Origin: a virus
Length of the DNA stretch: 64,000 bases
Virus record (IMG/VR): IMGVR_UViG_3300034072_001395
Coordinates: 32,571 to 96,570 of that record
Strand: one strand, 5' to 3'
Below are positions 7,535 through 58,706 of this stretch, piece by piece. How positions within the stretch are numbered: the first letter of the stretch is position 1; the number at the start of each line of letters is the position of its first letter. The position numbers were made by a program, and so were the translations under genes. The notes under the pieces are model-generated. The model was given only the letters and a program-made list of their open reading frames with translations, was not told the DNA's origin and did not search any database.

Positions 7535-7722
7535 ACGATCGCGTATCGGTCAACGATCTCACCACTGGCGGGCTGATCCACGCTGCACACGGCGCGGCAT
7601 TAGATCCCTTCTGGCTTGCCGCCGCTTGGTGCGATCGTCGATGGACACGGCGTTCTCGGCGTGTTACAGCATACGCGCCTACGGCGCCCGTAGGTCCGTC
7701 GGGTTCTACTGATCTCACCACT
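7535..7722 (+). repeat. dispersed GATC-rich intergenic element, locus 1
   Basis: Exact 24-mer GTATCGGTCAACGATCTCACCACT at 7543-7566, inverted variant at ~7627-7657, partial copy at 7711-7722; whole block aligns with reverse complement of 58542-58706. Confidence 0.95.
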
Positions 7723-7733
7723 GGAGGCATCGC

Positions 7734-8153
7734 ATGACGCCCTTTATCACGCACGTCCTCGCGTCCCCGGACGGCTACCGCACCCGCGGCCTGCTCCTCC
7801 GCGCGTCGCCGAAGCGCGTCAGCGACCTGGCGCGGCACATCCGCCTGCTGGCCGGCGTCCCGCCGGAGGGTCTGACCGAGTCGCCGCCGACGGGCTCGCT
7901 GATCAACGGGGGCTTCCTGCACACCGAAGATCCGCACCACCTGACGCCTGGTGGTGTGATGCTCCTCCACTACCGCAAGTACGGCTTCCTGGCCGACCAT
8001 GCGGTGCGTGCCCTGGCCCTGCACGTCCGCGGCGTGGAGTTCGACGCCGAGCTGGCCGAGGACGCCATCCAGGCGATCCGCGACAACTTCACGCCGGCGA
8101 GCGATGCGATCGTCGACCTGTCGGGCGTTGAGGATGTGATTGTCGAAGTGTGA
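7734..8153 (+). CDS. hypothetical protein
   Basis: GGAGG RBS; first gene right of divergent region. Confidence 0.7.
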   Translation: MTPFITHVLASPDGYRTRGLLLRASPKRVSDLARHIRLLAGVPPEGLTESPPTGSLINGGFLHTEDPHHLTPGGVMLLHYRKYGFLADHAVRALALHVRGVEFDAELAEDAIQAIRDNFTPASDAIVDLSGVEDVIVEV

Positions 8154-8219
8154 CGCGGGAGGGTTGACAGCGGCGGCCGGGCGGGTGACCTGAATGGCAC
8201 CCAGCACCGGAGGCCATTC

Positions 8220-9041
8220 ATGCCGCCCCGCCGCAAGTCCGTCGCACAGATCACGCACTCCCGTCCGCCGCCGACGCCCGAGGAGATCGCTGCCGCCGAG
8301 CAGGGCGAGGCGTTCGCCCGAGCCTTGTTCCCGAAGGCGAAGGAGCGCGGCCTCAACGTCCAGTTCAGCTCGACGCCCGCGGAGCAGACCCGCAACGGCT
8401 ACATGCGCCTGCCCGGCTTCCAGCGCCCGGCCGTGTGGTCGCCCGAGATGGCGCTCGGCTACGTCCGCAGTGTGCTGTGTGAGCGGAAGTTCCCGGGGCT
8501 GTTCATCGCGCGGGCGCGGTACGCGGACGGCGGGCGCGACGTGCTCGACATCCTCGACGGTCAGCAGCGCATCCTGGCGCTCGGCGGCGTGCTCCAGCGG
8601 GGCTCCGTCGCCGACGTGGCCGCCATGCGCGGTGAGCGGATCGTGGGCGCGGCGCCACACCTAAACCTCCTGGCGAGGTCCGCGGACGACGTGCTCGTGG
8701 CCCGGGGCGCTGACGAGCAGCCGCCACCAGTGTTCGGCGACCCGGAGGAGGGCGCGCTGGACTGCTCGCGCATCCCGGTCGCGTGCATGCGACGGGTCGC
8801 GTACTTCACCCACCGGCGTTTCTCGGACTACATCTGCGAGAACACCGGATGCTCCCGCGAGCAGGGCTTCTCCGTTTCCGCCTGGGCCTACGCCGCCTGC
8901 GGCAACATCTACCTGCCGTTCCTGATCGTCTACCAGAGCGCCAGCTTGCAGGATGTCAAGGACATGTTCCGGTCGATCAACACGCCCGGCGTGCAGATCA
9001 CGGAGGCGGAACTGGAGGCGCTGCTCGCCGCCGACGATTGA
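8220..9041 (+). CDS. DUF262 (GmrSD N-terminal / ParB-like fold) domain protein
   Basis: LPGFQRPAVW, ILDGQQR, MFRSINTPG motifs; no HNH domain. Confidence 0.8.
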   Translation: MPPRRKSVAQITHSRPPPTPEEIAAAEQGEAFARALFPKAKERGLNVQFSSTPAEQTRNGYMRLPGFQRPAVWSPEMALGYVRSVLCERKFPGLFIARARYADGGRDVLDILDGQQRILALGGVLQRGSVADVAAMRGERIVGAAPHLNLLARSADDVLVARGADEQPPPVFGDPEEGALDCSRIPVACMRRVAYFTHRRFSDYICENTGCSREQGFSVSAWAYAACGNIYLPFLIVYQSASLQDVKDMFRSINTPGVQITEAELEALLAADD

Positions 9042-9091
9042 CGCTCGCCTTGCGCCAAGTTATGCCCCGTTTGCCCGCAAAGGAGCCCCCA

Positions 9092-9946
9092 ATGTCCGTC
9101 GATACGATCCTCCTCCGCGCCGACTACCGCGACACCCTCGCCCACGTCGCTGCGTTGGGCGGCGCTGACCTCATCGCTTTCTCGCCGCCATACTGCGACG
9201 CCCGGAGCTACGGCATGGGCGCGTCATGGGGCGACGCTGACTATGCTGCGCTCGGAGACGCGGTGTTCGCCGCGCTCAAGCCGGGCGGGCACGCGCTGGT
9301 GAACGTCGACGCGCCGGTGCGCAACTGGCGCCCTGGCTTCGGCACCGAACGCGGCTTCCATCCGTGGCGCCTGATGCTGGACTGGGCCGAGCGTGTCGGT
9401 TTCCGGGTGCCGGACAGGCTCGCCTTCGGGCGGCTCGGCACGCCGGGCGCCTATAGCGGCCGCTTCCGCAACGACTGGGAGCCGCTGCTGTGGTTCCAGC
9501 GGCCTGGCGGTACGCCCTGGATGGACCGCTGGGCTATCGCGGAGCGGTGCGCGCCGTCCGCCGGAAAGTCTGGCGCTCGCCGAGTGGACGGCCAATTGGC
9601 TGTGCGGAAGCGGACGGGCCGTGCGGCTGAGGAGGGCTGGCGCCACCGCGGTACATTGTGGCATTACGGCGCCGTGGGTGGTGGCAACTCCGGCTCGCGT
9701 GATCTTGAGGCCGTCAACCACCCTGCCCGCTGGCCTTTGCGCCTCGCCCGCGACATCGTGCTCTGCTTCTGCCCCCCCGACGGGCTCGTGTGCGACCCGT
9801 TCGTGGGCGCGGGCACTACCGCGGTCGCAGCAGCCACCCAGGGCCGGCGCTTCGTCGGCGGGGACCTCGGCGCTCGGCAGGAGGACGGCGTACCGTGGGT
9901 GGACGTTGCGCGGGACGTGGTGCGGCGGGCGACGGCGCAACCGTGA
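9092..9946 (+). CDS. DNA methyltransferase, beta class (N4-C/N6-A)
   Basis: FSPPY near N-terminus, HPARWP, VCDPFVGAGTT; AAGGAG RBS. Confidence 0.9.
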   Translation: MSVDTILLRADYRDTLAHVAALGGADLIAFSPPYCDARSYGMGASWGDADYAALGDAVFAALKPGGHALVNVDAPVRNWRPGFGTERGFHPWRLMLDWAERVGFRVPDRLAFGRLGTPGAYSGRFRNDWEPLLWFQRPGGTPWMDRWAIAERCAPSAGKSGARRVDGQLAVRKRTGRAAEEGWRHRGTLWHYGAVGGGNSGSRDLEAVNHPARWPLRLARDIVLCFCPPDGLVCDPFVGAGTTAVAAATQGRRFVGGDLGARQEDGVPWVDVARDVVRRATAQP

Positions 9947-9947
9947 C

Positions 9948-11337: not shown

Positions 11338-11374
11338 CACGCGCGCCTCGGCGTGTTAGGATGCCTGCACGCCG

Positions 11375-17047: not shown

Positions 17048-17487
17048 GCGCCTCCGATGAGCGACACGCCCGTGCGCGCGAAGGTCGACACGTCCGCGAT
17101 CACGTTCTGGTCGACGAGCACCCAGGAGCCGTGGTAGCCGCGCCCAGCGGGGTCCTGCCAGTTCCGCTTCCAGACGCAGAAGTCGCCGTCGGCGCCGACC
17201 ATGATGGCCGCGTAGCGGAGGGAGCCGCCGTTCTCGCGCAACTCCGCGCTCATGTAGTAGATCGCCAGACCGCGGTTGCCCTCGTCACCGACGATCATGG
17301 TCGGCGGCGCGCCGAGTTCCGCGGCGAGCGTGACGATGCGCACGGCCTCGGCGATGACCGCATCCGGCACATCGTACCCGGCCGTCGTGACGCGCATGCC
17401 TCCGCGCCCTTGGATGGGACGCAGCGCGTCGGCGAGGCGCCGGGTGGCCGGGTCGTCAAAGATGGCGAGGTCGTCGGTGTCAGACAT
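17044..17487 (-). CDS. hypothetical protein
   Basis: Coupled ORF. Confidence 0.65.
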   Translation of the reverse strand: MSDTDDLAIFDDPATRRLADALRPIQGRGGMRVTTAGYDVPDAVIAEAVRIVTLAAELGAPPTMIVGDEGNRGLAIYYMSAELRENGGSLRYAAIMVGADGDFCVWKRNWQDPAGRGYHGSWVLVDQNVIADVSTFARTGVSLIGGA

Positions 17488-17914
17488 CGGGGTGTTCCGA
17501 GACGTACTTGAGGGTGGCCCACAGAGCGTTGAAGCTGGCGGCCATGCAGGCGCGCTTGGCGCTGTCGCACTGCCGGATCGTCGCCCTGCGCCAGTCGGCC
17601 AAGGAGTCCCCGGGCGAACTGCGCCAAGCGCGCTCGGCCTCCGTCATCCGCGCCTCCGCCTCAGCGCGCGCCTTCCGCGCGTCGGCCCACGAGCGGGCGT
17701 GCTCGTCCAGAGAGCCGTCGGGCGCGATGACGTTCAGCGCCGGAGGGAGAAGGCCCGCGAGCCCGGTGGACCCGACCTCGACGTAGCCCTGGCGTTTGAG
17801 GCTATCGAGCAGAGTCGCCTCGAAGTAGTTCGCCGCAGTAGCGCCACGCGCCAGGATGAGCAGCGCCGCTCGGATGTCGGCGCGGGAGGGCTCGGGGGTC
17901 TTGCGGGGTGTCAT
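17480..17914 (-). CDS. winged-helix-like + helical domain protein, paralog 5 (divergent)
   Basis: ALLILARGA...LLDSLKRQGYV...PDGSL..HARSWADA. Confidence 0.55.
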   Translation of the reverse strand: MTPRKTPEPSRADIRAALLILARGATAANYFEATLLDSLKRQGYVEVGSTGLAGLLPPALNVIAPDGSLDEHARSWADARKARAEAEARMTEAERAWRSSPGDSLADWRRATIRQCDSAKRACMAASFNALWATLKYVSEHPDV

Positions 17915-18366
17915 CAGGTGCTCTCCAGCAATGCACGGAGTTCGCGGACGGCGGCCTGGCGGGCATCGCGGGCGACCATCGCCGCCTGCCCTCCGCGGTC
18001 CTGCGCTTCGTCGAGGCGGAGCTGCGCCATCGCGCGCTCGGAGTTCGTCACGGTGCGCCCCCAGGCGCGGTTGGCTTCGCGGACATCGTGCGCGGCGTCC
18101 AGAAGGGCGATGTGCGCAACCGCGTAGGCGCGCAGCACGGGGGACACCGCGTTGCCCGGCGTGAGATACCGGATGCCACGGGGCGTGACCTGGCGCTGCG
18201 TGAAGTCGTCGACGCAGGCGAGCCCCCGCAAGCAGGAGAGCATGTCGGGCGTGTAGCGCCGAGCGACGCCGTTGGCGAGGTCGAGGAGCGCCTTGCGCTG
18301 GCCCGGCGTCAGCTTGAGGCCGGCGAGGTCGAGGTGGCGGTCTGGCCGGTTGTCGTTGTGCGTCAC
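17914..18366 (-). CDS. winged-helix-like + helical domain protein, paralog 4
   Basis: HLDLAGLKLTPGQRKALLDLANG...VTPRGIRYLTPG..VS..LRAYA...ELRALL. Confidence 0.7.
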   Translation of the reverse strand: MTHNDNRPDRHLDLAGLKLTPGQRKALLDLANGVARRYTPDMLSCLRGLACVDDFTQRQVTPRGIRYLTPGNAVSPVLRAYAVAHIALLDAAHDVREANRAWGRTVTNSERAMAQLRLDEAQDRGGQAAMVARDARQAAVRELRALLEST

Positions 18367-18827
18367 TTCCACTGTACCTCCAGAATGGAACGGAGTTCTT
18401 CGCCCGCCGCGGCGCAGGGCTCTTGACACGCAACCCACGCATCTCCACGGCGGCCAAGTGCTTCGTCGTGCGCGGAGATCGTAGCAACGACATACGGGGT
18501 CATCTGGAAGTGGTCGCGCAGGTAAGCGTCAGTCATCACCCGCTCAAGGGAGCCCACTGCTCGATCCAGAGCGAGGTACACCGCGAAAGCATCAGCGTAA
18601 GCCCTGAGCGCCTCGGAGATGACGTGCCCTGGCGTGACAAGGCGGATGCCCTTCGGTGTCGCGCGCTGCTGGCAGTACGGATCGAGGAGGCCGGCGTTGA
18701 GCAGCGCGATCCGTGTGCCCACCGCCATGCGAGGGCAGGTGCCGAGGGCGCGGAACAGCAAGGCGCGCTTCTGGCCGCGGGTCAGCGTTATGCCGTCGAT
18801 GTCGAGGACTTCTTCGATGGTCGGCAT
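18363..18827 (-). CDS. winged-helix-like + helical domain protein, paralog 3
   Basis: VLDIDGITLTRGQKRALL..ALG...LLNAGLL...ATPKGIRLVTPG..IS..LRAYA...ELRSIL. Confidence 0.7.
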   Translation of the reverse strand: MPTIEEVLDIDGITLTRGQKRALLFRALGTCPRMAVGTRIALLNAGLLDPYCQQRATPKGIRLVTPGHVISEALRAYADAFAVYLALDRAVGSLERVMTDAYLRDHFQMTPYVVATISAHDEALGRRGDAWVACQEPCAAAGEELRSILEVQWK

Positions 18828-19282
18828 TAGAGGATCTCCCGAAGTTCTGCGAGAGCCACATCACGCGCGCTGCGGCACTTGTCAAGGGCCGCCTCGTACT
18901 TCGCGTGCTCGGCGGTCACAAGCGCGGAGAGCTGCGCGCTCGTGAGGTCGGGGAGGAGCCAGATCCGTCCTGCTTTGCTCCACTCGTGTGCGGCGGCGAC
19001 GTATGCGTCGTGCGCGATGGACCACTGGATGAGCGACCACGGTAAGGCAGCGTCAGGCTGCAAGCAGCGAGCGCCGAGGGGTGAGACCGTCAAGCAGCAG
19101 CTCTCGTAGTAGCACAGGAGGCCCTTGCGCAGAAGCGCGTCGACCACCTGCTGTTTGTAGCGCACAGGCGCGCCAGTTGCAAGGTCGCGCAGGAGCGTCA
19201 CCTGCGCCGCCGACAGTTTGATGCCCGTGGTGTCGAGGTGCTCGCGGGCGCGCTCCTTCAAGTCGTTGGCGATCTTGTCCAT
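18827..19282 (-). CDS. winged-helix-like + helical domain protein, paralog 2
   Basis: HLDTTGIKLSAAQVTLLRDLATG...ALLRKGLL...VSPLGARCLQP...ELREIL. Confidence 0.7.
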   Translation of the reverse strand: MDKIANDLKERAREHLDTTGIKLSAAQVTLLRDLATGAPVRYKQQVVDALLRKGLLCYYESCCLTVSPLGARCLQPDAALPWSLIQWSIAHDAYVAAAHEWSKAGRIWLLPDLTSAQLSALVTAEHAKYEAALDKCRSARDVALAELREIL

Positions 19283-19716
19283 CAGGTGTTCTCCTTCAGA
19301 AGGTGCGCCCGCAGAGCCTCGACCATGCGCGCCTCGGCCTCGGCGGCGAGAACGCGCATCGCTTCGTGCGCTGCGGCAGCCGCTTCGATCGCGTCGAGCA
19401 GCGTCGGAGTGAAGTTCTCCCGGTCGTTGGCGTAGTCGTTCACGCCCGTGAGCGTGTGGCCCGTCTCCCAGTGAAGCGATGCGGCATCGAACCACGCCTT
19501 GTAGGCGCGTGTGCCCGTGAAGTCGCGGGCCACCATGCCCAGGCCGAGCGATGTGAGCATCCAGGGCGGTGACTTGTCGTAGCGCCCGCGCTGGATCAGG
19601 CCGGCGTCGATCAGCTTGTGGCGCACGGCCCGCGGGATGCCGACCAGCATGCCGGTGAGGGCCACTTTGCGCAGATCCTCGATGAGGTGCCCGTGGGCGG
19701 CGGTGTTCTTGTTCAT
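19282..19716 (-). CDS. winged-helix-like + helical domain protein, paralog 1 (divergent)
   Basis: LRKVALTG...KLIDAGLI...LTSLG...ALRAHL; GGAG RBS. Confidence 0.6.
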   Translation of the reverse strand: MNKNTAAHGHLIEDLRKVALTGMLVGIPRAVRHKLIDAGLIQRGRYDKSPPWMLTSLGLGMVARDFTGTRAYKAWFDAASLHWETGHTLTGVNDYANDRENFTPTLLDAIEAAAAAHEAMRVLAAEAEARMVEALRAHLLKENT

Positions 19717-20033: not shown

Positions 20034-20179
20034 GAGAACGTAGCATCGGTCAACGATCTCGTCACCGGAAGGCGCCAAACGGCCGTTCGGGCGCGGAAAG
20101 TGGGTCCGTAGACCTACGGATGACAAGAAGTACGTTCGGCGAGAACGTCGTATCGGTCAACGATCTCACCACTCGGCTG
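20034..20179 (+). repeat. dispersed GATC-rich intergenic element, locus 2 (two direct copies)
   Basis: GAGAACG....ATCGGTCAACGATCTC at 20034-20060 and exact 24-mer at 20150-20173; 20116-20179 matches reverse complement of 37489-37552 at 55/64. Confidence 0.95.
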
Positions 20180-20894
20180 TGTCGCGGTGCTCGCAAAAAG
20201 CCCCTTGGAGGAAGGAGGCACATGGTGACCGCGATGCGCGGTACTTGTGGCTGTAGAGTATGAGCCGGATACCGCACACCGGCCGTCAGGTGCGTAGGTG
20301 GTTCGCCCGATGTGGGTGGGCTATCGGCAGGTAGGCGGGTGGGCGGGTGGTCGGTGGGACATATGTAACTGGAGTTGGCTGGAGAATGACACATAGCAAA
20401 CGGAAGGGGTCGTGTACCCCCCGCGCGTGTGTCGCGGGGGGACCGCCCCGGGGGCCCTTGAGCTGGCGCATCGTCGATGCCCCCATCGGTGTCATCGCTG
20501 GGGGAGGTGGGGGGTGTCCCTCTCACCCGGGGGGTGGGCGGACATCCCCTCTCCCCGCGCATGACCGGACGGTCATCATGCAACGGGCGCGCGGGGCGGC
20601 CCCTCCCTTGAGGGGGGCAGACTCACCCGATGACACCGGGCGCGGCGCGGCGGGAGCTCCGGTGTTCGGGAGGCCCGGGCAGACTCACCCGTGGTCGACG
20701 GTTCGGGGCGCCTGTCAGGGGACAGGGAGGGGAGGCAGGGAGGGGGGCGCTTGTGGTAGCTGCCCCGGCGGCGGGCGCCTTGCCCCGAACGCGAAAAGCC
20801 CCCCGGCGCGTGAGCACCGAGGGGCCTACAGGGCGGGCGGCTATGTCGGGCGGGCGAGGGTACCGGCTACCAGGGAGGCGCGCTCCTTGCCCCC

Positions 20895-21489: not shown

Positions 21490-21528
21490 TGTTTCATGCA
21501 ATGTTTCACCGTGTTTCACCGTGAAACA
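21490..21528. repeat. TGTTTCA repeats ending in parS-like palindrome TGTTTCAC-C-GTGAAACA
   Basis: TGTTTCA at 21490, 21502 and 21512; 21512-21528 is consensus parS TGTTTCACGTGAAACA with one extra central base. Confidence 0.6.
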
Positions 21529-21738
21529 TGCAAGTAGATCCCCGTACAGTCTACGATCCGATCCGCAAGGCGGACAGATTCTGTCCGGGCCCGTCCATCG
21601 GGCGGGCGGGCTCGAGCTTCGCCCGGAGTGACAGATATAGCGGTGTCGGTGGCGGCCTGGTCGATCGGCTACGATCCGCATGAATAGCGCACCTTAGAAG
21701 TTTTTTCGGAAAGTTAGAGGTTTCGGGGTCGATTCTAC

Positions 21739-37481: not shown

Positions 37482-37666
37482 CGTGGATCAGTCGAGTGGT
37501 GAGATCGTTGATGGATACTGCGCTTTCGCCGATCGCACTTCTTGTCATCCGTCAAAGTGCGTAGGCTTCCGAGGCGGCGATCCTACCCTTGTTGGCGCGT
37601 TCGGCATGGCTGAGACGCCGATCTCTGCCCCCTTGCATCGGCTACGATCCAGCGTTGGTCAACGAT
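37482..37666 (-). repeat. dispersed GATC-rich intergenic element, locus 3
   Basis: 37482-37520 equals 58662-58700 at 37/39; 37489-37552 is an inverted match to locus 2; degenerate plus-strand copy at 37642-37666. Confidence 0.95.
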
Positions 37667-38870: not shown

Positions 38871-39149
38871 ATGGGCTCCCGCCGCACCAAGGCCGACTAC
38901 CACTACATCCTGAGCACCATCGTCGATGGTGATGGCTGCTTCACCACCGAGGAGGCCAAGACCGCCTTCGGTGTGACCGCCACCGCGGTCGTCAGCACCC
39001 TGAACGGCCTCGCCAAGATCGGGCTGGTCGTGCGCACCAAGCGCGGCAACTACAAGCTGCTCATCACCGACACCGAGCAGGCCAGCCAGATCGTGCTGAG
39101 CACTGACGGTCGGCGGCTCCGGCGCAAGAACTCCGAGGCCAGCGCCTAA
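38871..39149 (+). CDS. winged-helix DNA-binding protein
   Basis: FTTEEA...FGV...AV...LNGLAKIGLVVRTKRGNY. Confidence 0.75.
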   Translation: MGSRRTKADYHYILSTIVDGDGCFTTEEAKTAFGVTATAVVSTLNGLAKIGLVVRTKRGNYKLLITDTEQASQIVLSTDGRRLRRKNSEASA

Positions 39150-45642: not shown

Positions 45643-46521
45643 ATGTACCAGTCCCCCTTCAAGTACCCAGGCAGCAAGGCCCGCGCGCTCCCCGCCATCG
45701 CATCTACCCTCCGTCGCCTCGCCGAGCCGGGCGGCGCCCTGGCCGTCCCCTTCGTCGGCGCCGGCTGGGAGCCGATGTCCGTGCTGGAGGACCGTGAGGT
45801 CGCCGCGCGCACGCACCTGATCCTCGCCGACAGCAGCCCCTACATCGCCCGCTTCTGGATGGCGCTCAACGAGCGGCCCGACGACGTGGACACTGTGTTC
45901 GACCAGCTCGCGTCGGAGTGGGCGACGGTCGCCCCCGCGAAGCGGCGCGCGGCCTACGTCCACATGCGCGAGGCCATGTCCGACTCCCTGGGCGACGACT
46001 GCCACGTCACGGCCGCCTACCTGATGATCGTCCAGCGGCTCGCCTTCAACGGCCTGTTCCGCACGAACGTCTCCGGCCGCCTCAACGTCCCGCCCGGGTC
46101 GGCGTGCGCCGAGGACGCGCCGCTTGTTGCGTGGGCCGACACGCGCGCCAACATCAAGGGTGCCGTCGAGCGCCTCAAGCGGGCGGCCTCCGTGAAGGTC
46201 CTCTGCGGCGACTGGTCCGACACGCTCGACTTCGCGCTCGACCACCACGGCGGTGGGTACGTCCTCTGTGACCCGCCCTACGTCAAGACGCACGCGGCGT
46301 ACACCCGCGCCGGCTTCGGCATGGCCGACCAGAAGGCCCTCATCGAGCGCCTCGCCGACCTGCCGCCCGCCTGGCGCGCGTCCATCACGAACTCGGTGGA
46401 CGCTGACGGGCTGTTCGACCGTGCCTCGTGGGACGTTGTGTGTTACGCGGTCAGGCGCAGTATCTCCTGCACCAACGAGGCCCGCGGTGCGGCGGGCGAG
46501 ATCATCGCCGTCAAGAAGTAG
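45643..46521 (+). CDS. Dam-like (alpha class) DNA adenine methyltransferase
   Basis: PFKYPGSK, PFVGAG, FNGLFRTN.SG.LNVP.G, DPPY, VRRSIS. Confidence 0.9.
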   Translation: MYQSPFKYPGSKARALPAIASTLRRLAEPGGALAVPFVGAGWEPMSVLEDREVAARTHLILADSSPYIARFWMALNERPDDVDTVFDQLASEWATVAPAKRRAAYVHMREAMSDSLGDDCHVTAAYLMIVQRLAFNGLFRTNVSGRLNVPPGSACAEDAPLVAWADTRANIKGAVERLKRAASVKVLCGDWSDTLDFALDHHGGGYVLCDPPYVKTHAAYTRAGFGMADQKALIERLADLPPAWRASITNSVDADGLFDRASWDVVCYAVRRSISCTNEARGAAGEIIAVKK

Positions 46522-46535: not shown

Positions 46536-49469
46536 GTGACTTGCACGTCCTTCCGAGGCGCACGCTGCGACGATTGCCCGCTGGGCCCGAAAGGCGCGCT
46601 CCGGTCCACCGACCGCGAGTGGCGCCCCGTGGCGATGGAGGACCACCGCCTGCGCGGGTCCGAGATCCTGGCAGTGCATCAAGCACCGACGCCGGAGGAC
46701 GAGAAGAACGGCAACCTGCTCTCCGGGCGCGACGGCGGCACCTGGGGGCGCGGCCTCGCCAACGCGGGGATGCGCCGCCCGGACGTGTCGAGCACGACGC
46801 TGATCGCGTGCGCGCCTCCGGGCGGCACGGGCGGCGCGTACCGCCGGATGGAGGACAGCCTCCGCCGGCTCAACAAGCTGCGCCAGAAGCAGGGGCTCGC
46901 GCTTCTGGAGCACCCGGCGGCGTGCTGCCGGCCCCGGCTCGAAGCCGACCTGGCCGGGTTCAAGAACATCATCACGCTCGGCAAGAGCGCCACGCAGGCG
47001 CTCACCGGGCTGAACCGGGACATCACGAAGCTGCGCGGCGCGCCGATGGGCGTCGACGCCGAGTGGCAGAAGGTCCCCTACGACGACCCGAAGGCCGTGA
47101 AGCTCGCGCTCGCCAGCTTCGACGTGTCCTTCGTCGCCCGCAACGCGCACTTCATGGGGACGTGGGTGCGCGACATCGCCAAGGCGCGTCGGCTGTTCGA
47201 GGGGCGCCTGCGCTGGACGGACCCGGCGATGGTCTGGCGCCCGTCCCCGGACGAGCTGCGCCTCTGGCTCCGCGAGCTGGCCCGGCGCAAGGAGCGCACA
47301 GCCGTCTTCGACGTGGAGACCTCGCGGCACCCCCAGGGCATGCGCCCCCGGGCGCTCTCGCTCTACACCCTCGCCATCGCGCGTTGGGGCCCGGAGGGCG
47401 AGGGCGGCGCCATCGAGGCGATCGGCATCCAGTTCCTCGACCCGGCGACCGGGACGCGCTGGTACACCGCCGAGCAGGAGGCCGAGGTCAAGGACCTCCT
47501 GCGTACGTTCTTCACCTACGGCGCCGTCACGAAGATGGGGCACAACGCGGGAGCGTTCGACCGGGCCGTCATCGAGGAGCACTTCGGCGTGACGCCGACG
47601 CCGCTGGTGGACAGCATCTTCGCCACGCGGGCGGCCAACCCGGGGCTTCCGAAGGGCCTGAAGCCGACGGGCCGGACGTTCACGGACGTGGGCGAGTGGG
47701 ACAGCGACGACAAGGACGAGGACGGCGGAGGCGCTGCGTCCAAGGACGCGGACGTGTTGTTGCGGTACAACATGATGGACTGCGCGGTCAACCTCGCCAT
47801 GTGGCCGACGATCCGCGAGATCGCGCGGCGGTCGGGCTACTACGACCCGATCCGCCAGGACCTCGCCGACATGATGCTGCCGCCCGAGAAGGCTGGCTCG
47901 CCGCTCACGCTCTCGGACATCGACCACATCGCGCAGGACCGCGCCCTGCGCATGACCGACATCGGCATCTGGATCGACCAGCGCAAGCGCGCCGAGCTGC
48001 ATCAGGAGGCCGAGGCCCAGGCGGCCGCCGTCCTTGACCTGCTCCAGCGCCGTCTGCGGGAGGCCGGCGTCGAGGGCCTGACCGACGCCGACCTGGACAG
48101 CGACGAGGACGAGGACCGCCTGGAGGTCAACCCGAACTCGACGGCCAAGCTGCGCGACATCTACTTCGGCCCCGCGCCCCGCGGCTGGGACCTGCCCTTC
48201 CTGCCCGTCACGGGCGGCGTCGACGCGGCCGGCGACCCGATCTACAGCCGCAAGGACTTCCTCACGGGGACGGGCGACCTGTCCACGTCGGACACGGTCC
48301 ACCGGATGTACCTCGCGTCGGGCGTCCTGAAGCCGCACCAGTTCGACATCATGTACCTCGTGCGGGTCTACCGCCGGCTCAAGACCAAGATCATCGGGAC
48401 GACGCTCCGGCCGCTCGCGCCTGAGCAGAAGAAGTACCAGAAGGGGATCATCTCCGGTATCACGAAGTCGTGGCTGCACTTCGACGGGCGCGTCCACAGT
48501 ATCTTCTCGGCGCACACGACCAGCGTGGGGCGGTACGCGAGTAGTTCCCCTAATGTCACCAACATCGGCAACAAGAAGGGCCAGGGGCAGTTGAAGAAGG
48601 TGTTCGCGGCACCACCCGGCTTCTTCTTCGTGGGCGCCGACCTCAATCAGGCGCACCTGTTCATCATCGCAAACGTCTGGAAGATCCCCGCGTTGTGCGA
48701 GGCCATCGCCAACGGGTACGATCCGCATAACTTCAACGCGGCCACCACATTCAGGGACAACTTCACGCGGGCGCGCGGCTTCCGCGGCCTCAGCGAGAAG
48801 CCCGAGAAGGGCACGCCCGCCGAGGCGATGCGCAACGTCATCAAGACCTTCATCTACGCATCCGTCTACGGCGCCATGCCCGAGACGATCTGGCGCGTGC
48901 TCACGAGCACGGAGACGGATCCACCGCCGGACTGGCTCAAGGACGTGGCGGCCGACAGCGGGCTGACCATCGACGCCCTGGTCAAGTCCACGATGCCGTA
49001 CCTCGGCAAGGCGCTCGACAGCGTGCGCGCCCTGCGGGCCGACTGGCTCGCCGGCCAGCCCGAGTGGCTCGAAGCCTGGCAGCGGGAGGAGGACTTCTAC
49101 GGCCGGCACGGCTACGTCAAGTCCTACCTGTTCGGGCGGTCGAGCGGCGACCTCGGCGAGGACAAGAACAAGGTCGTGAACTTCGGCGTGCTCTCCACGG
49201 AGAGCGACATCATGCGGATCGTCGAGGCCCGCATCGACCGCGCGTTCCCCGGTAAGCTGTTCTACCAGTGTCACGACAGCGCGGCGATCGTGCTCCCGCT
49301 CCCCGAGGGCTACGCGCCGGACTGGCGCCCCAAGAAGGGTGAGCCGCTGCCCGCCTACTTCGAGGACGTGCGCCAGCGGTACGAGGCGCTGTTCCGCGTC
49401 GAGGTCCCCGGCTGGCGCTTCCCGATCACGGGCGAGGCGAGCGTCGGCTTCAACCTCGCCGAGGTCTGA
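46536..49469 (+). CDS. family A DNA polymerase with N-terminal family-4 UDG-like domain and 3'-5' exonuclease (SPO1-like architecture)
   Basis: CDDCPL...C.PP...CRPRL..LG..A...ITKLRG; exonuclease DVET, HNA.AFD, YN..D; polymerase GRY.SS.PN, ADLNQAHL, R...K...Y...YG, CHDS. Confidence 0.92.
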   Translation: MTCTSFRGARCDDCPLGPKGALRSTDREWRPVAMEDHRLRGSEILAVHQAPTPEDEKNGNLLSGRDGGTWGRGLANAGMRRPDVSSTTLIACAPPGGTGGAYRRMEDSLRRLNKLRQKQGLALLEHPAACCRPRLEADLAGFKNIITLGKSATQALTGLNRDITKLRGAPMGVDAEWQKVPYDDPKAVKLALASFDVSFVARNAHFMGTWVRDIAKARRLFEGRLRWTDPAMVWRPSPDELRLWLRELARRKERTAVFDVETSRHPQGMRPRALSLYTLAIARWGPEGEGGAIEAIGIQFLDPATGTRWYTAEQEAEVKDLLRTFFTYGAVTKMGHNAGAFDRAVIEEHFGVTPTPLVDSIFATRAANPGLPKGLKPTGRTFTDVGEWDSDDKDEDGGGAASKDADVLLRYNMMDCAVNLAMWPTIREIARRSGYYDPIRQDLADMMLPPEKAGSPLTLSDIDHIAQDRALRMTDIGIWIDQRKRAELHQEAEAQAAAVLDLLQRRLREAGVEGLTDADLDSDEDEDRLEVNPNSTAKLRDIYFGPAPRGWDLPFLPVTGGVDAAGDPIYSRKDFLTGTGDLSTSDTVHRMYLASGVLKPHQFDIMYLVRVYRRLKTKIIGTTLRPLAPEQKKYQKGIISGITKSWLHFDGRVHSIFSAHTTSVGRYASSSPNVTNIGNKKGQGQLKKVFAAPPGFFFVGADLNQAHLFIIANVWKIPALCEAIANGYDPHNFNAATTFRDNFTRARGFRGLSEKPEKGTPAEAMRNVIKTFIYASVYGAMPETIWRVLTSTETDPPPDWLKDVAADSGLTIDALVKSTMPYLGKALDSVRALRADWLAGQPEWLEAWQREEDFYGRHGYVKSYLFGRSSGDLGEDKNKVVNFGVLSTESDIMRIVEARIDRAFPGKLFYQCHDSAAIVLPLPEGYAPDWRPKKGEPLPAYFEDVRQRYEALFRVEVPGWRFPITGEASVGFNLAEV

Positions 49470-53272: not shown

Positions 53273-53312
53273 CCCGCCGGACGTGTTAGGCTCCCGCAAC
53301 GGCGAGGGCCTC

Positions 53313-54117: not shown

Positions 54118-54149
54118 CAACATGTACCCAGGTCAGAACAGGGTGTCAA
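54118..54149 (-). promoter_or_regulatory. sigma70-like promoter, TAC(T/A)TG class
   Basis: TTGACA-N17-TACATG-TTG. Confidence 0.7.
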
Positions 54150-55092
54150 GCGCCGCACGACCGAGCGCCGTCGCCAGGGGAGGCGGGACGGCGTTGCCGA
54201 TCTGCGCGTAGACCTGCGCCGACGTGCCAGCGAAGAAGAGCCCGGGGTGGAAGCCCTGGAGGATGGCGCACTCGGCCACGGTCAGGCGCCGGCGCCCGAC
54301 GGCCAGGAAGGCTGCGTCGGAGGCGCGATCGGGACCGCCGTTGAACGTCCAGCCCGACCGCTCCGAGGCCCGGGTGCCCTTGACCTCCGTGGTCATCACG
54401 GTGGGCGCCGGGCGGTCCAGGCGCCCAGGCTCGCTGCCGGCGCGTCCGGTGCCGACGGGGTAGACGACCTCGTCGCAGTGGGGACAGCGGTTGCGCGGCC
54501 CCGACGTGCAGCGCGCCAGGGAGGATAGGGCCTCGCGCATGGTGGGCGCCGGCGTCTCCCTCGCGTGAACCGTGGCGACGAAGGCCGCCAGGGCCTCGGC
54601 GCTGGCGTGCGCCGCGAGGATGATCCGCCAGCGCGTCTGTGCGACGCCGAAGGCACTGGCGTTCACCGCGATGACCTCGACGGCGTAGCCGAGGGCCTCG
54701 ACGGCTGGCTTCCACTCGCGCAGCGCCACGTCCTCGGCGGCGTACACGTTCTCGACCAGAACGGCTCGCGGGCGCGTGTGCGCGATGGCGGCGAGCGTCG
54801 CGGGCCAGCCGTCGAACGCCTCGTGGCGTCGGCGGCTGTTGGCCCTGCTGTGCAGTTGGCACGGCGGCGACGCCCACAGGAGGCCCGTCGGGATGCGCGG
54901 CAGGGCCTCGATGACACCGGGCGCCTCGATGTCCTCCTGGCGCACGACGCCCTCGTAGCCGAGGAAGCACCGCAGCGTGTCGCACGCCACCGGGTCGCGC
55001 TCGACGGCGGCGAGGTGCTTGAAGCCGGCGACGTGGAGCCCCCGAGAGGCTCCGCCGCCGCCGGCGAACAGGTCGATCAAGTAGGGCTTCAT
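54133..55092 (-). CDS. DNA (cytosine-5)-methyltransferase
   Basis: DLFAGGGG, SPPCQ, ENV, Q.R.R, RRLTV.E....QGF, QIGNAVPP. Confidence 0.93.
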   Translation of the reverse strand: MKPYLIDLFAGGGGASRGLHVAGFKHLAAVERDPVACDTLRCFLGYEGVVRQEDIEAPGVIEALPRIPTGLLWASPPCQLHSRANSRRRHEAFDGWPATLAAIAHTRPRAVLVENVYAAEDVALREWKPAVEALGYAVEVIAVNASAFGVAQTRWRIILAAHASAEALAAFVATVHARETPAPTMREALSSLARCTSGPRNRCPHCDEVVYPVGTGRAGSEPGRLDRPAPTVMTTEVKGTRASERSGWTFNGGPDRASDAAFLAVGRRRLTVAECAILQGFHPGLFFAGTSAQVYAQIGNAVPPPLATALGRAALDTLF

Positions 55093-55108
55093 CGAGCGCC
55101 CTCCTGGG

Positions 55109-57595
55109 TCAGACGATCGCGCAGGCTCCGCCGGCGCAGGCGAACGTGCCGTGCCCCTCGGAGATGCCCGTCTCGTACTGCGCCAGCATCGACCAGTCAA
55201 CGTCCGGCAGCTCCGCCGCCAGCTCGTTGTACCGGGCCTCGTCGATCTCCTCGTAGGGCGCGCCGTAGTAGACGTGATCGTCGTAGGGGAAGAAGGACAG
55301 GCCGCCGGCGTTCTCGATGTTCTGGAACACCCACTCGCCGACCTCCGCCCACTCGCTCTCGCGGACGTTGATCGTGGCCGACTGGTTGTGGCCCTTGTAG
55401 GCCAGCCAGGAACGGTTCAAGAGCGAGATGCGCTCCAGGGTGTCCAGGGCCGTCTCGTCCTTCCGGCACAGCGACCCCTCGGGCGCCTTCATCGGCAGCT
55501 CGAAGGTCCAGCCCGTGACATCCTCCTCGGGGAGGCCGACCTCGGCCTGGCGGGTCGGGATGCACCGGACACCGTGCGCGCGGAGGACGGCGCAGACGGG
55601 CGACTGCGAGGACACCTGCACGCGCCGGATGTAGTAGGGCGCGTGGTGCGCGTGGACGCCCGACGCGGTGCCGAGGAACACCGACGAGTTGCCGTCGGGC
55701 TTGCCGCAGGTGATCCCCGCGGCCGGTGCGATGCCGAAGATGCGCGCCCACCGGGCGTTGACGTTGTCCGCCGTGAAGCCCAGGATCGCCAGGACTTCCT
55801 CGTTCTGCGCGACCTGCGGGCACTCGACCTGGTTGGAGAGCCCGACGCCGAGCAGGGCATCCTCGCGGGTCAGCCGGATGGTGCCCTCACGGAGCAGCGG
55901 GAAGTTGGTGAGGCACGCCTGCATGGTGCCGATGAAGGTGGCGAGGTTGACCTTGCGAAAGGCCGTGTCCTCGTCATCGGAGGGGCGGAGAACCACGCTG
56001 GTGAGATTGCATACTTGCCCGCCGCCACCATCCCAGGTGCCGTTCGCCAGCTCGGAGGCGAGGCCGATCTCCACGCAGTTGTGGACGTAGAAGCCGTTGG
56101 CGTCGAAGGCGTGGACGCCCGGGATCGTGCAGTCGTAGACGGGCTCCTCGCCGTCAGGCACCAGGGCGCTGAACGTGGTGAGGCGCGGCCGGTCGGCGCG
56201 GAGGCTCATGCGCAGCTTGTCGCCCGCGCGAAGGTCGCCGGCCTCGACCTCCTCGTACTCGCCCGGCTTGCCCGTCGCGCGGAACATGACGTGGTTCGCC
56301 GTGAGGCGCACGCAGAAGCCCTCGACCGTCTCCAGGCGGAACACCGGCGCGAGGGCGTGCGTCTGCCAGAAGCCCCCAGCGGTCGAAGGATGCACCTGCT
56401 CATCCACGACGGCGGTGAACTGGCGGCCGATGAGGTGCTTGACCGGGAGCCCCACGAAGGTGCCGTGCGTGCCGTCGAACACGCGCACGATCGTGTCGCC
56501 CGTGACGCAGGGGTTCGCGCGGATCAGCCGCCCACGGTAGTCGAAGCGCGCCGGGCTGAAGATGCCCCGCTCGCCGGCACCGGAACGATGCAGGATGTCC
56601 CACTCCGCCATGAACTGCTCCCTCGTCAGGCCCGTCTTGACGACCCACGAGTTGTTGGCCTGGGAGAACTCCTCGGGCACGTCACCGTTCGGGTAGAACT
56701 TCGCCCAGCGCAGCTTGTCGTCGTCGCGGTCGCTGAACGAGATCATCGCCGAGCGGCGCACGCCGCCCACCTGCACGATGCTGCCGGCCGTGCAGAGCAG
56801 GGTGTGGCACTCCAGCGTGGTGAGCCGCCGACCCTCCCGCCCAGCCCGCTGGATGGTCGTGCGCAGGGCGTCGAGGTACTTGCGCAGGGGCTCGGGGCCG
56901 CTGGCCTCACCGCCCTTGGTGAGCAGCTTCGCGCCCTTCGGCCGGATCTGCGAGTAGTCGAAGGTCACGTTGGCGCCCGAGTACCACGCCGCCACGCCGT
57001 CGTAGACGGCGCGCATCCAGCCCTCGGTGCTGTCCTCGATGACGTGCGTGGACGAGGACAGGTCCTCGGAGGACGGAGGCGCCGGGATCGGCATGGCGTC
57101 GACGAACTCGCTCTCGACGGAGAAGCCGACGCCGGTGCCGTGCATGAGGATGTAGAGGGCCTCGGCGAACACCACCGGGGTGTCGCACACGGAGAAGTAG
57201 CAGTTGTAGGCCGCGATGTCCGAGCGGTCGAGCACGTCGCCGGCCGCCCACAGGGCGCGCATCGAGGGCATGACGTGGCGCAGGAACACGGCCTCCGTCG
57301 CCATCGCGTGCTGGATGTCGAAGGCGACGCGATGGAGGGCCGCGCGCCCGCCGGTCGCCGTCTCGTTGATCTGCTTGTGCATCCGGTAGCGCATGTAGGC
57401 GCTCCACCGGATGACCGTCTCGCGCCACGTCTCGCGGTGACCGTCGTGCTTCACCTTCGCGTAGGTGCGAAGCCGGACGATCTCGGACGCGAGGCGCGCA
57501 CCAGGGGTCAGGCCCTCCAGCGCGTCGTTGTCGTTGTGCGAGGCGAGGACCTTCGAGGCCCACTCGACGTGGGCCTCTCTCTGCTGGTGCCACAT
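55109..57595 (-). CDS. nrdJ: class II (B12-dependent) ribonucleotide reductase, intein-containing
   Basis: RTYA...ETW, PSMRALW, YNC, GTGVGF, GG.ASGP.PL, GGVRRSA, NPC.EI (split by intein), CNL, KP.G, HNQS.T, C-terminal CAGGAC. Confidence 0.93.
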   Translation of the reverse strand: MWHQQREAHVEWASKVLASHNDNDALEGLTPGARLASEIVRLRTYAKVKHDGHRETWRETVIRWSAYMRYRMHKQINETATGGRAALHRVAFDIQHAMATEAVFLRHVMPSMRALWAAGDVLDRSDIAAYNCYFSVCDTPVVFAEALYILMHGTGVGFSVESEFVDAMPIPAPPSSEDLSSSTHVIEDSTEGWMRAVYDGVAAWYSGANVTFDYSQIRPKGAKLLTKGGEASGPEPLRKYLDALRTTIQRAGREGRRLTTLECHTLLCTAGSIVQVGGVRRSAMISFSDRDDDKLRWAKFYPNGDVPEEFSQANNSWVVKTGLTREQFMAEWDILHRSGAGERGIFSPARFDYRGRLIRANPCVTGDTIVRVFDGTHGTFVGLPVKHLIGRQFTAVVDEQVHPSTAGGFWQTHALAPVFRLETVEGFCVRLTANHVMFRATGKPGEYEEVEAGDLRAGDKLRMSLRADRPRLTTFSALVPDGEEPVYDCTIPGVHAFDANGFYVHNCVEIGLASELANGTWDGGGGQVCNLTSVVLRPSDDEDTAFRKVNLATFIGTMQACLTNFPLLREGTIRLTREDALLGVGLSNQVECPQVAQNEEVLAILGFTADNVNARWARIFGIAPAAGITCGKPDGNSSVFLGTASGVHAHHAPYYIRRVQVSSQSPVCAVLRAHGVRCIPTRQAEVGLPEEDVTGWTFELPMKAPEGSLCRKDETALDTLERISLLNRSWLAYKGHNQSATINVRESEWAEVGEWVFQNIENAGGLSFFPYDDHVYYGAPYEEIDEARYNELAAELPDVDWSMLAQYETGISEGHGTFACAGGACAIV
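56078..56509 (-). mobile_element. 144-aa mini-intein in nrdJ
   Basis: NP|CVTGDT...LTANH...VYDCT....HAF.ANG..VHN|CVEI; no homing endonuclease. Confidence 0.93.
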
Positions 57596-57628
57596 GGGCG
57601 ATCTCCGTGGTGGGTCTGTAGCGGCCGG

Positions 57629-57832
57629 TCAGTAGCGGCCCGAGTTCTCTACCCTGCGCAGCGCGACACGCCAAGGGGCGAAGTGCCGGTAGAGTTCCTG
57701 CGCGGCGAGGCGCATGTCCGCGCGCCGTTCGACGGCCAGGTCGAGCGCCTCGCGCTCCGTCAAGATCGTGTCGGCTTCGTCAGCGTCGATCAGCCGAAGG
57801 GGCGGCGCGACCGCGGGACTACCTGGGGGCAT
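57629..57832 (-). CDS. hypothetical protein
   Basis: Short ORF overlapping upstream gene. Confidence 0.45.
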   Translation of the reverse strand: MPPGSPAVAPPLRLIDADEADTILTEREALDLAVERRADMRLAAQELYRHFAPWRVALRRVENSGRY

Positions 57833-58151
57833 CGGAGATCCCCCGGCTGATCCGCGCGAGCATGTCGAGCACCTTGTCCATGTTCGGCTGCGTGGCGAGG
57901 AGCGCGCGGATGTCCGCCTTCATGGCGGCGATGTCCTGCTCCGCGAGCCGGAGGTGGTCGCGGGCGCGGTCCACGTCTTCCTCCAGGCGCTTGATGGTCG
58001 CGCGCAGGGCCTCGATGTCCTTGTTGTCGGCGCCCGCCGCCTGCTGGTTCTGGACCAACTTCCAGATGATCTGGAGGAGCGCGGTCACCATGACGCCGCC
58101 GGCCGCACCCATGCCCGCGTCACCGACGATGGGCACGAGGTTGTCGGCCAT
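57819..58151 (-). CDS. membrane-anchored coiled-coil protein (possible lysis accessory)
   Basis: GGAGG RBS; hydrophobic N-terminus then heptad repeats. Confidence 0.55.
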   Translation of the reverse strand: MADNLVPIVGDAGMGAAGGVMVTALLQIIWKLVQNQQAAGADNKDIEALRATIKRLEEDVDRARDHLRLAEQDIAAMKADIRALLATQPNMDKVLDMLARISRGISDAPR

Positions 58152-58165
58152 CTCAGCACCTCCAG

Positions 58166-58423
58166 CTACTTGACGATCTTGTTGACCGGCTTGGCGGCCC
58201 ACGTCTTGCAGGCCCAATAGCGCGCCTTGTTCGGCGGCCCCGGGTCGTCGCAGCCGTGCCGGGACCGGAAGTTCTTGCGCCGATCGGGGTCGTCGCGCCG
58301 GATCTCCATGTTCGGATCACCGAACCGGACGGTGTACGGCTTGCCCTCGTACTCGCCCTTGACGACGAACTTCTTGTCGCCGTACCCAGGCTCCCCCGGG
58401 CGGATGCGTCGCGGCGTCGGCAT
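58166..58423 (-). CDS. conserved basic phage protein
   Basis: KKFVV....VRFGDPNM.I.RDDP.RRK.FR.RH.CD.PGP..KARYW.CK.W motif, recalled from aquatic phages. Confidence 0.8.
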   Translation of the reverse strand: MPTPRRIRPGEPGYGDKKFVVKGEYEGKPYTVRFGDPNMEIRRDDPDRRKNFRSRHGCDDPGPPNKARYWACKTWAAKPVNKIVK

Positions 58424-58541
58424 GCGGCCCCCTGAAGCCCGAACCTATCACGCCGGAGGGCCTCCCGCAAGGACGGAGCGACGGCCGATTGGCATAGGGG
58501 CGTCTACGCTGGCGAGGCGAGCGGAATATCCGGTAGGGGTA

Positions 58542-58706
58542 AGTAGAACTGGGTGGAAAGGGCGCCGTAGGCGCGTGTGTCGTTGAGAACGCCGTATCCA
58601 TCAACGATCGCACCAACGGGCGGCAAAGCCGGTAGGATCTATAGCCGCGGTGGGTGAGGAGCGTGGATCAGTCGAGTGGTGAGATCGTTGACCGATACTG
58701 GATCGT
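58542..58706 (-). repeat. dispersed GATC-rich intergenic element, locus 4
   Basis: Exact 24-mer on minus strand at 58675-58698, variant on plus strand at 58585-58615; block homologous to 7535-7710 in inverted orientation. Confidence 0.95.

Follow-up and report, generated by a model that had tools for sequence, protein, structure and literature searches.

What is the role of a ~27-bp two-armed DNA site that is present in eight copies in a 96.4-kb high-GC phage genome, two at each of four gene-free gaps (loci 1 to 4)? The window that was analyzed is a stretch of 64,000 nucleotides from this genome, and all coordinates below refer to it. A profile of the eight copies, run with nhmmer against the whole 96.4-kb genome, returned exactly eight matches (30.8 to 42 bits, E≤2e-8), the next-best match genome-wide scoring 8.8 bits. 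The 24-mer first described in a sequence-only reading of this DNA was confirmed as exact at 7543(+), 20150(+) and 58675-58698(-), and with two mismatches at 37495-37518(-); it did not occur across 100 shuffles. The additional degenerate copy claimed at each locus was borne out by the same profile, to which the 12-mer at 7711, listed as yet another copy, is a partial match only. As had been proposed, the motif is not scattered over coding regions: by the gene calls each of the eight copies falls between genes, with two at every locus, and the whole-genome profile search placed none in the virion half (32.5 kb).

The repeated unit is an imperfect dyad of 27 bp, GAGAACG-N13-CGATCTC, with arm centers 20 bp apart. 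The form GAGAACG-N13-CGATC[TG]C fits four of the eight copies and is symmetric at six of seven arm positions; the pattern G[AC]GA[AT]CG-N13-CG[AT]TC[TG]C is matched by four copies and nowhere else in the genome. In three copies (1a, 3b and 4b) the left arm is swapped for a -10-like hexamer, TACGAT or CACGAT. Within this phage the 13-bp spacer is conserved nearly as well as the arms. The sites and the features discussed with them are the following.

7510-7539, plus strand: candidate sigma-70-type promoter P(1a) (TTGACG, 18-nt spacer, CACGAT), reading rightwards to the gene starting at 7734
7534-7560, plus strand: site 1a (type A), left arm CACGATC (-10-like), right arm CGATCTC; 36.7 bits
7573-7582, plus strand: TGATCCAC box, ~10 nt past site 1a
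7631-7657, minus strand: site 1b (type B), full dyad GAGAACG-N13-CGATCGC; 30.8 bits
7675-7722, plus strand: conserved end of the cassette that loci 1 and 4 have in common, consisting in order of a small GC hairpin block, GTTCTACT and a lone 12-mer
20034-20060, plus strand: site 2a, full dyad GAGAACG-N13-CGATCTC; 36.3 bits
20141-20167, plus strand: site 2b, full dyad with the exact 24-mer at 20150-20173; 42 bits
37501-37527, minus strand: site 3a, left arm GAAAGCG, two-mismatch 24-mer at 37495-37518; 36.3 bits
37643-37669, plus strand: site 3b (type A), left arm TACGATC inside CTACGATCC; 31.3 bits
38871-39149, plus strand: candidate binding protein, 92-aa winged helix with a long C-terminal helix (Pfam, AlphaFold, fold matches)
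45643-46521, plus strand: Dam-family (D12 class) adenine methyltransferase (Pfam MethyltransfD12 at 1.1e-11)
58585-58611, plus strand: site 4a (type B), full dyad GAGAACG-N13-CGATCGC; 35 bits
58681-58707, minus strand: site 4b (type A), left arm TACGATC, exact 24-mer at 58675-58698, then a TGATCCAC box; 39.2 bits

At locus 1 the exact 24-mer of site 1a spans 7543-7566, and sites 1a and 1b face each other with their centers 97 bp apart. The lone 12-mer, GATCTCACCACT at 7711-7722, stands immediately upstream of the ribosome-binding site for the gene starting at 7734. Site 2b points rightwards, into non-coding DNA; site 3a points to a minus-strand gene starting at 37367, site 3b to the operon containing the winged-helix gene, and site 4b to a minus-strand operon that includes ribonucleotide reductase. 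Loci 1 and 4 have convergent pairs, locus 2 a direct and locus 3 a divergent one, with center-to-center distances of 96, 97, 107 and 142 bp that share no common helical phase. The "nested inverted pairs" of the sequence-only reading arise because every locus has two copies in mixed orientations. The homologies behind that description were reproduced: locus 1 and inverted locus 4 are identical at 140 of 179 aligned columns, in conserved blocks with variable linkers, loci 2 and 3 share an inverted match of 64 nt (86%), and loci 3 and 4 a direct match of 37/39 at 37482 and 58662. The statement that all four loci lie between divergent genes fails at locus 2, a gap of 1178 bp flanked by two minus-strand genes ending at 19716 and 20895.

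Related genomes support the view of the family as a cis-acting system of the phage, in that the blocks are conserved against diverging linkers, a relative at 94-96% identity keeps the blocks, and a second one at ~70% has a diverged form in syntenic gaps. The closer contigs, L041 and L042, are continuous through locus 1 with the arrangement unchanged; the changes in L042 at this locus fall mostly outside the conserved blocks, and the lone 12-mer is kept. Judging from these alignments, selection is acting on the sequence blocks, as those of loci 1 and 4 are kept while the linkers vary in sequence and length. The more distant genome, G002 (~70% nucleotide identity), is collinear with this one over all four loci. 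The 24-mer is absent from it, and three syntenic gaps carry a diverged version of the site, two per gap, with the same left arm and a different center. The two arms lack symmetry in most G002 copies, and the orientation of the sites relative to the flanking genes varies between the two phages. The TGATCCAC box, which here also follows sites 3a and 4b, lies ~10 nt downstream of G002 sites as it does in this phage (sites a1, b and c1). The divergence in G002 looks like a site and its binder shifting specificity together.

Several sites lie on or near promoter-like hexamers. Sigma-70-type promoters were defined by a TTGACA-like -35, a spacer of 16-19 nt and a TANNNT -10, upstream of and co-oriented with a gene. 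A convincing -35 was found at site 1a only (TTGACG-N18-CACGAT), and L042 has TTGACA-N18-TACGAT at the same place, with the hexamers kept or improved and four changes in the spacer. The -10-like left arms match a promoter type of this lineage, TTGAC-N17-TACGNT, for which seven of 12 matches are intergenic although intergenic DNA makes up 8% of the genome, and which also occurs in G002. Similarly, four of the nine occurrences of CTACGATC are intergenic: two form the left arm in sites 3b and 4b, where TACGAT has no -35, and two lie in an early promoter cluster (21551 and 21669). Site 2a is flanked on the minus strand by GTGACG and TACGTT, which are separated by a 17-nt spacer and may form a leftward promoter of the operon that begins at 19716; TAGACC-N16-TACGTT precedes site 2b, its -10 four nt ahead of the left arm. 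A TATGCT hexamer (TATGAT in L042) is found 10 nt upstream of site 1b on the minus strand. No TANNNT hexamer was found upstream of sites 2a and 4a in the forward direction, and a stricter promoter scan gave no promoter at loci 1, 3 and 4.

Among the four functions offered by the sequence-only reading, operators that coordinate transcription units fit best, as the dyad lies on or after -10-like hexamers and a winged-helix gene lies downstream. We assign a probability of about 0.5 to the reading that the eight sites are promoter-proximal operators of one phage regulon; the element is most likely an ordinary kind of phage control site with a new sequence. A phage-encoded dimeric DNA-binding protein would bind the 27-bp dyad. 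Since in three sites a -10-like hexamer takes the place of the left arm, and others have a TACGNT-like hexamer 4-10 nt upstream, the bound protein would cover the -10 and the transcription start, or DNA just downstream, and would thus block the host RNA polymerase. The controlled units would be non-structural operons (helicase, replication module, ribonucleotide reductase and accessory genes); the virion genes have none of the sites. We infer the binding of a protein to the sites, the identity of the binder and the choice between repression and activation. Two observations speak against a simple dimer on two arms: it leaves the near-arm conservation of the 13-bp spacer unexplained, which may reflect homogenization of the copies or a second contact, and arms 20 bp apart are widely spaced for a MarR-like dimer.

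The best candidate binder, chosen by position and predicted fold, is the 92-aa protein encoded at 38871-39149; its own operon would in that case be among its targets. It matches Pfam AbiEi_4 at 1.4e-5 and MarR_2 at 0.0026; its AlphaFold model has a pLDDT of 82.7, and the best fold matches of the model are MarR, TrmBL2, CRP-family and Sso10a proteins, with weak E-values of 4e-3 to 1e-2. The gene lies in the operon after site 3b, and a winged-helix gene stands downstream of sites in both phages, the G002 counterpart (31% identical) being the first gene after a G002 site pair (after site b2). A candidate regulator gene beside the sites that it would read, the arrangement expected under autoregulation, is seen at 38871-39149. 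Two DUF262 (ParB-fold) genes are also present in this phage.

A structured RNA was weighed against these operators. The 24-mer and the ~170-nt blocks would then be a shared 5' leader transcribed from the type A promoters and acting as nut or put sites do, a long stem between inverted copies controlling stability, translation or antitermination. The predicted start of P(1a) coincides with the beginning of the 24-mer, the pairs 1a/1b and 4b/4a can form a ~22-bp stem (fold z of -2.1 and -2.0 against shuffles), and the third, partial copy at locus 1 abuts the ribosome-binding site, where alternative pairing with the 1b segment is possible. We nevertheless consider this reading fairly unlikely. No Rfam match reached the gathering score, and a consensus fold computed for L042 and loci 1 and 4 gave a positive (penalizing) covariation term, one compensatory pair in 54 and broken inner stems, in a comparison of two independent sequences that has little power. 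Loci 2 and 3 are without a downstream inverted partner, the flanking genes run opposite to some of the copies at locus 2 and in G002, and an arm-to-arm hairpin is impossible in most G002 copies. As orientation is not fixed over the two genomes, a two-fold protein site fits better than an RNA signal. Another reading takes the sites as 'middle' promoters, bound by an activator or read by a modified host polymerase, which would turn on the operons for replication and accessory functions once the early genes have been expressed, much as T4 MotA boxes do. In type A sites the conserved sequence lies mostly downstream of the -10, the place of repressors rather than activators, type B copies have no -10-like hexamer at the equivalent place, and no sigma factor, RNA polymerase or AsiA/MotA-like family was found among the ~100 window proteins. 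This makes middle promoters unlikely, even though a good -10 without a -35, as is typical of activator dependence, is seen in 3b, in 4b and in both CTACGATCC boxes (21551 and 21669), the sites precede replication and nucleotide-metabolism operons, and 24 nt of exact identity in three copies recalls phage-specific promoters.

The multiple replication origins of the sequence-only reading are disfavored. They would consist of iterons of several origins, or of one origin with auxiliary sites, bound by the 1055-aa helicase whose gene adjoins locus 1; this protein matches a PHROG 'replication' family (3.7e-18) and has a P-loop helicase core, with no match by sequence among solved structures. Phages T4 and P4 illustrate that multiple origins or iteron clusters are possible, and in both phages compared here locus 2 is followed by ~700 bp of non-coding DNA with a G-rich plus strand, beyond which comes the stretch of highest AT content in the window, a layout that would suit a transcription-primed origin. 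An iteron origin was taken as at least three tandem direct repeats at regular short spacing beside an AT-rich unwinding element. The loci instead have two copies each, 96-142 bp apart and in mixed orientation, with neither tandem arrays nor an AT-rich unwinding element (minimum 40-bp GC 0.47-0.55, the lowest-GC DNA lying at 21.4-21.7 kb); GC skew tracks the direction of the genes and provides no origin signal of its own, and several sites overlap promoter hexamers, so that origins appear very unlikely. Geometry alone, namely the inverted matches of loci 1/4 and 2/3, favors recombinase crossover sites that flip the inner ~17-kb and outer ~51-kb segments. This proposal is largely refuted and extremely improbable: no integrase, resolvase or invertase family (Pfam) was detected among the ~100 window proteins, G002 is collinear over the four loci and L041 and L042 have the same arrangement through locus 1, and two mixed-orientation copies per locus are needless for a simple inversion system.

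The promoter-proximal operators favored above may have a further layer in their GATC sequences. Of the loci described as GATC-rich, 1, 3 and 4 have 6-7 GATC per 200 bp and are top-ranked without being extreme, and locus 2 has only two. The first three are among the five densest 200-bp windows (mean 1.4; other windows reach 5-6). As GATC is common across the genome (686 sites, 7.1 per kb, observed/expected 0.96), this richness is a modest signal only. Four boxes, each conserved separately, contain GATC: the -10-like element TACGATC, CGATCTC of the right arm, TAGATCC and TGATCCAC. The nearest solved relatives of the methyltransferase at 45643-46521 are DpnM and E. coli Dam, and the enzyme is presumably specific for GATC; it may be relevant, given that this sequence recurs in the right arm, in the -10-like box and in TGATCCAC. 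The cassettes would then be methylation-timed switches, in which progressive methylation or post-replication hemimethylation changes both the strength of the promoters and the binding of the regulator in the four regions at once and ties expression of the replication operons to the state of replication of the genome; the locus 2 pair could also fire into the G-rich non-coding DNA and prime an R-loop origin. We hold such switches to be distinctly doubtful, and only the combination of the GATC positions with a Dam enzyme of the phage could lift the system above the routine.

No new principle is revealed by the operator reading. If it is true, the eight sites mark out the regulon of an uncultured and poorly annotated phage lineage, together with its temporal logic, and offer a concrete protein-site pair and a natural case of a site and its regulator co-drifting between two related genomes. 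For annotation it would supply promoters, operon boundaries and a candidate master regulator. Most proteins of this lineage match no known family.

Layouts of this kind have precedents. Coliphages 186 and P2 use face-to-face promoter switches, and the candidate promoters of loci 1 and 4 would likewise fire at each other over ~100 bp, each with an operator; the likeness is one of layout and not of a lysis-lysogeny decision, and P(1a) alone is well supported as a promoter here. The KorB and KorA operators of RK2 and the DnaA boxes comprise up to a dozen sites at divergent replication or maintenance promoters, read by one protein and possibly clustered beside an origin. The present family resembles them in having few copies of one site at candidate promoters of replication operons; a KorB/ParB- or DnaA-type binder, or a role of the two DUF262 genes at these sites, would be hypothetical.

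Winged-helix regulators of the AbiEi/MarR type bind paired inverted repeats within promoters and autoregulate (PMC7319586), and the candidate is like them in its AbiEi_4 and MarR_2 matches and its predicted winged-helix fold. Unlike these regulators, it has no toxin partner or second domain, its putative regulon is genome-wide rather than one autoregulated promoter, and the arms of its site are 20 bp apart. The stoperators of Cluster A mycobacteriophages (L5 gp71 type) are asymmetric sites of 13-14 bp, bound by a monomer, set in one orientation relative to transcription and present at 20-30 per genome in temperate phages with an immunity repressor and an integrase (PMC9283540, PMC6550527). Identity with this system was rejected on the grounds of eight sites at four loci, their mixed orientation and the lack of an integrase family among the ~100 window proteins; the sites here are dyads of 27 bp that always occur as two at a locus, with a small winged-helix protein as the candidate binder. 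The resemblance to stoperators lies in a conserved site repeated over intergenic DNA, at or downstream of promoters, for one phage regulator (here a candidate), and in a site sequence that, to judge by G002, appears to drift with its regulator between related phages.

The 24-mer core first noticed was recovered in three exact occurrences and one with two mismatches, and was never found in shuffled sequences. Extension of this core yielded eight copies of a ~27-bp two-armed site, paired at four loci (1a/1b to 4a/4b); their profile scores were 30.8-42 bits, as compared with no more than 8.8 bits in the rest of the genome. All eight copies, two per locus, lay outside the gene calls (based on codon usage and made for this analysis), as the sequence-only reading had it, and the homologies it had described between loci were reproduced: 140 of 179 columns identical between locus 1 and the inverted locus 4, a 64-nt match at 86% between loci 2 and 3, and 37/39 between loci 3 and 4. 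Two of its descriptions stood in part. The placement in four divergent gaps failed at locus 2, where the 1178-bp gap has a minus-strand gene on either side; GATC richness was seen as local clusters, top-ranked but not extreme, in a genome where GATC is already abundant (7.1 per kb, the expected frequency), and locus 2 has only two GATC sites. The repeats are a real, selected cis-regulatory family. As a word, the motif was absent from the literature, all matches being primer coincidences. When IMG/VR was scanned for exact occurrences of a 16-mer from the motif, 32 single matches came up; the only contig comparable in length was AT-rich and unrelated, and the others were taken as chance.

An alignment of the copies on their core shows imperfect dyad symmetry (GAGAACG, 13 bp, CGATCTC); the strict pattern matched four of these sites and had no match elsewhere in the genome. 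In copies 1a, 3b and 4b (type A), CACGATC or TACGATC takes the place of the left arm. The substituted hexamer matters because promoters in this lineage have the form TTGAC-N17-TACGNT: 7 of 12 matches fall in intergenic DNA, which makes up 8% of the genome, and the same promoter type is found in G002 (IMGVR_UViG_3300042453_004683), a relative. The sequence CTACGATC is intergenic in 4/9 occurrences, two of which constitute the early promoter cluster at 21.5-21.7 kb. Site 1a contains a complete candidate promoter, TTGACG-N18-CACGAT; at this site a 94-96% identical relative has hexamers nearer to consensus (TTGACA, TACGAT) and an altered spacer. TACGTT stands 4 nt ahead of the left arm in site 2b, and TATGCT 10 nt ahead of site 1b. 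The sites thus lie on or just past the -10 hexamer and transcription start of candidate promoters, and all eight are most likely promoter-proximal operators of a phage regulon.

Several other readings of the motif were examined by eye and rejected. As an ECF-type promoter, its AAC-to-CG spacing of 14 nt is too short and the elements are missing from the type A copies; it matches an IHF site only partially; it has no complementarity to GGAGG as a mimic of the 16S 3' end; and the spacings of the paired sites (96, 97, 107 and 142 bp) share no helical phase.

The genes and regions of the window referred to below are as follows.

7734-8153, first gene after locus 1
8220-9041, DUF262 protein, just downstream of locus 1
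11338-31566, region of ~47 genes
17480-19716, minus strand, five paralogues
20180-20894, stretch following the locus 2 pair
21490-21531, second operator set
38871-39149, plus strand, 92-aa winged-helix protein
45643-46521, D12/Dam-like DNA methyltransferase
46536-49469, plus strand, Pol A
54133-55092, DNA methyltransferase
55109-57595, minus strand, class II ribonucleotide reductase
58166-58423, minus strand, first gene after locus 4

The record is 96,570 bp long, the window being its final 64 kb; GC content is ~70%. The two ends of the record overlap by 127 bp; this terminal direct repeat, of the length expected from a k-mer overlap, reads as an overlap left by the assembler on a genome that is circular or circularly permuted, and the record is probably a circular assembly, closed at 96,443 bp. 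CheckV estimated its completeness at only 66%. The first 32.5 kb of the record encode the virion proteins (terminase, portal, one with a weak major-head match, and one of 3729 aa); the window carries a Pol A replication module, helicases, a nuclease, an SbcC-like ATPase, nucleotide metabolism genes (the reductase, thymidylate synthase, DHFR, dUTPase) and numerous small genes that matched no family. Three DNA methyltransferases (D12/Dam-like, C5 cytosine and N4/N6 type) and two DUF262 (GmrSD N-terminal, ParB-fold) proteins are encoded by the phage; no tRNA genes or Rfam families were found in the window, and the reference phage collection showed no DNA similarity to the phage. CTAG is wholly missing from the genome (0 sites versus ~104 expected from trinucleotide frequencies), and GTAC and TGCA are likewise depleted. 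In relatives of Pol A the polymerase is preceded by a fused N-terminal uracil-DNA glycosylase domain (PF03167); for the window protein Pfam reported the polymerase domain only. A weak intein-splicing match was seen in the ribonucleotide reductase, and its G002 orthologue (78775-82827), at 1350 aa versus 828 aa, aligns with it as three separate segments, suggesting that the two differ in intein content.

Loci 1 and 4 share an inverted cassette of ~170 bp, in the order -10 box, site A, TGATCCAC box, TAGATCC box, an opposite-facing site B, a small GC hairpin and GTTCTACT. The linkers vary in sequence and length between the two loci, and in the close relative (contig L042) most changes lie outside the blocks. 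Conserved blocks with diverged linkers indicate that selection acts on the sequence blocks. The first gene after locus 4 encodes an 85-aa protein which, at 78% identity in G002, is the most conserved of that comparison; it is a member of a virus-wide family (PHROG 7595) without an assigned function, with DUF5754 on some members or atlas neighbours. The first gene after locus 1 gave no reliable family lead.

G002 was found through a PolA search; it is 94 kb long and collinear with this genome at ~70% identity. It contains neither the 24-mer nor any match to the eight-copy profile; three syntenic gaps each hold two copies of a diverged site, in which the left arm GAGAACG is kept, the centre differs and the same TGATCCAC box follows ~10 nt downstream; copy a1 has the complete dyad, GAGAACG-N13-CGATCTC. 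The equivalent of locus 3 is a divergent pair, as here. Searches with the 1055-aa helicase adjoining locus 1 gave no relatives in IMG/VR and six short metagenomic contigs; its family profile had no match in the PDB, so the 'UL9-like' label given to it by the sequence-only reading is a putative one. In its ~50% relatives (L045 and L046) the upstream region is arranged differently: it contains an ordinary TTGACG-N17-TAC..T promoter and lacks the motif. The dyad was absent from 79 loci of ~40% PolA relatives. Nearly all genes in the region at 11-31 kb, including the minus-strand operon headed by the five paralogues and the plus-strand early genes, are without a BLASTP-detectable G002 counterpart, three short weak matches excepted; judged by this comparison, the region is a hypervariable accessory one between conserved modules.

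Directly downstream of the locus 2 pair, ~700 bp are non-coding in both phages (41560-42329 in G002), the GC3 of all ORFs being 0.63-0.74 versus ~0.88 in real genes. The plus strand is G-rich (skew +0.18 to +0.21; 34-48 runs of at least three G), and the G002 copy faces this DNA in the same direction as here. The stretch may represent either a non-coding RNA or an origin of the R-loop type.

A single origin near locus 2 is possible. Origins at all four loci, among the candidates of the sequence-only reading, are disfavoured: the loci have neither tandem iterons nor an AT-rich element, the most AT-rich DNA lying at 21.4-21.7 kb, and GC skew tracks the gene strand. Another of its suggestions, that a recombinase inverts the inner and outer segments between inverted copies, is opposed by the lack of any recombinase family among the window proteins scanned, by the collinearity of both relatives over the loci, and by close-relative contigs that run straight through locus 1.

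An RNA leader is a possible reading, with folding z-scores of about -2; against this, the consensus fold has one compensatory pair among 54 and broken inner stems (two independent sequences, and so little power), and the orientation of the copies relative to genes is variable. Activator-dependent promoters are a live variant, since several -10 boxes have no -35.

For these putative operators, the 92-aa winged-helix protein is proposed with low confidence as a candidate that would bind the sites, because in this phage and in G002 alike a site pair is located upstream of its gene. The G002 counterpart is 27% identical over 64 residues by BLASTP (31% in the alignment). Pfam gave AbiEi_4 and MarR_2 matches; the predicted model (pLDDT 82.7) is a winged helix with a long C-terminal helix, and its fold matches (MarR, TrmBL2, CRP-family, Sso10a; E 4e-3 to 1e-2) are weak but consistent. 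IMG/VR returned no relatives, and the protein collection a sole winged-helix one, 87% identical. The five paralogues, which align weakly with each other, were ranked below it: they have no homologue in G002, though G002 has the site family, and the model (pLDDT 73.6) had no significant fold match. A virion RNA polymerase that would read the motif was also considered and rejected: PHROG, Pfam and the PDB gave no match for either the 3729-aa or an 835-aa protein.

A second, different operator set is present in the early control region, adjoining the window's most AT-rich DNA and three candidate early promoters. It consists of a 19-bp palindrome, ATGTTTCAC-C-GTGAAACAT, and two direct half-sites; at the same place in G002 (~43260-43390) an unrelated palindrome, ATGCTGC-N3-GCAGCAT, occurs three times. 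By analogy, this arrangement resembles an immunity-type region with swapped specificity. As for the eight sites, a position on or just after the -10 and start is the usual one for a repressor, and they are most likely operators of an ordinary kind whose sequence is new.
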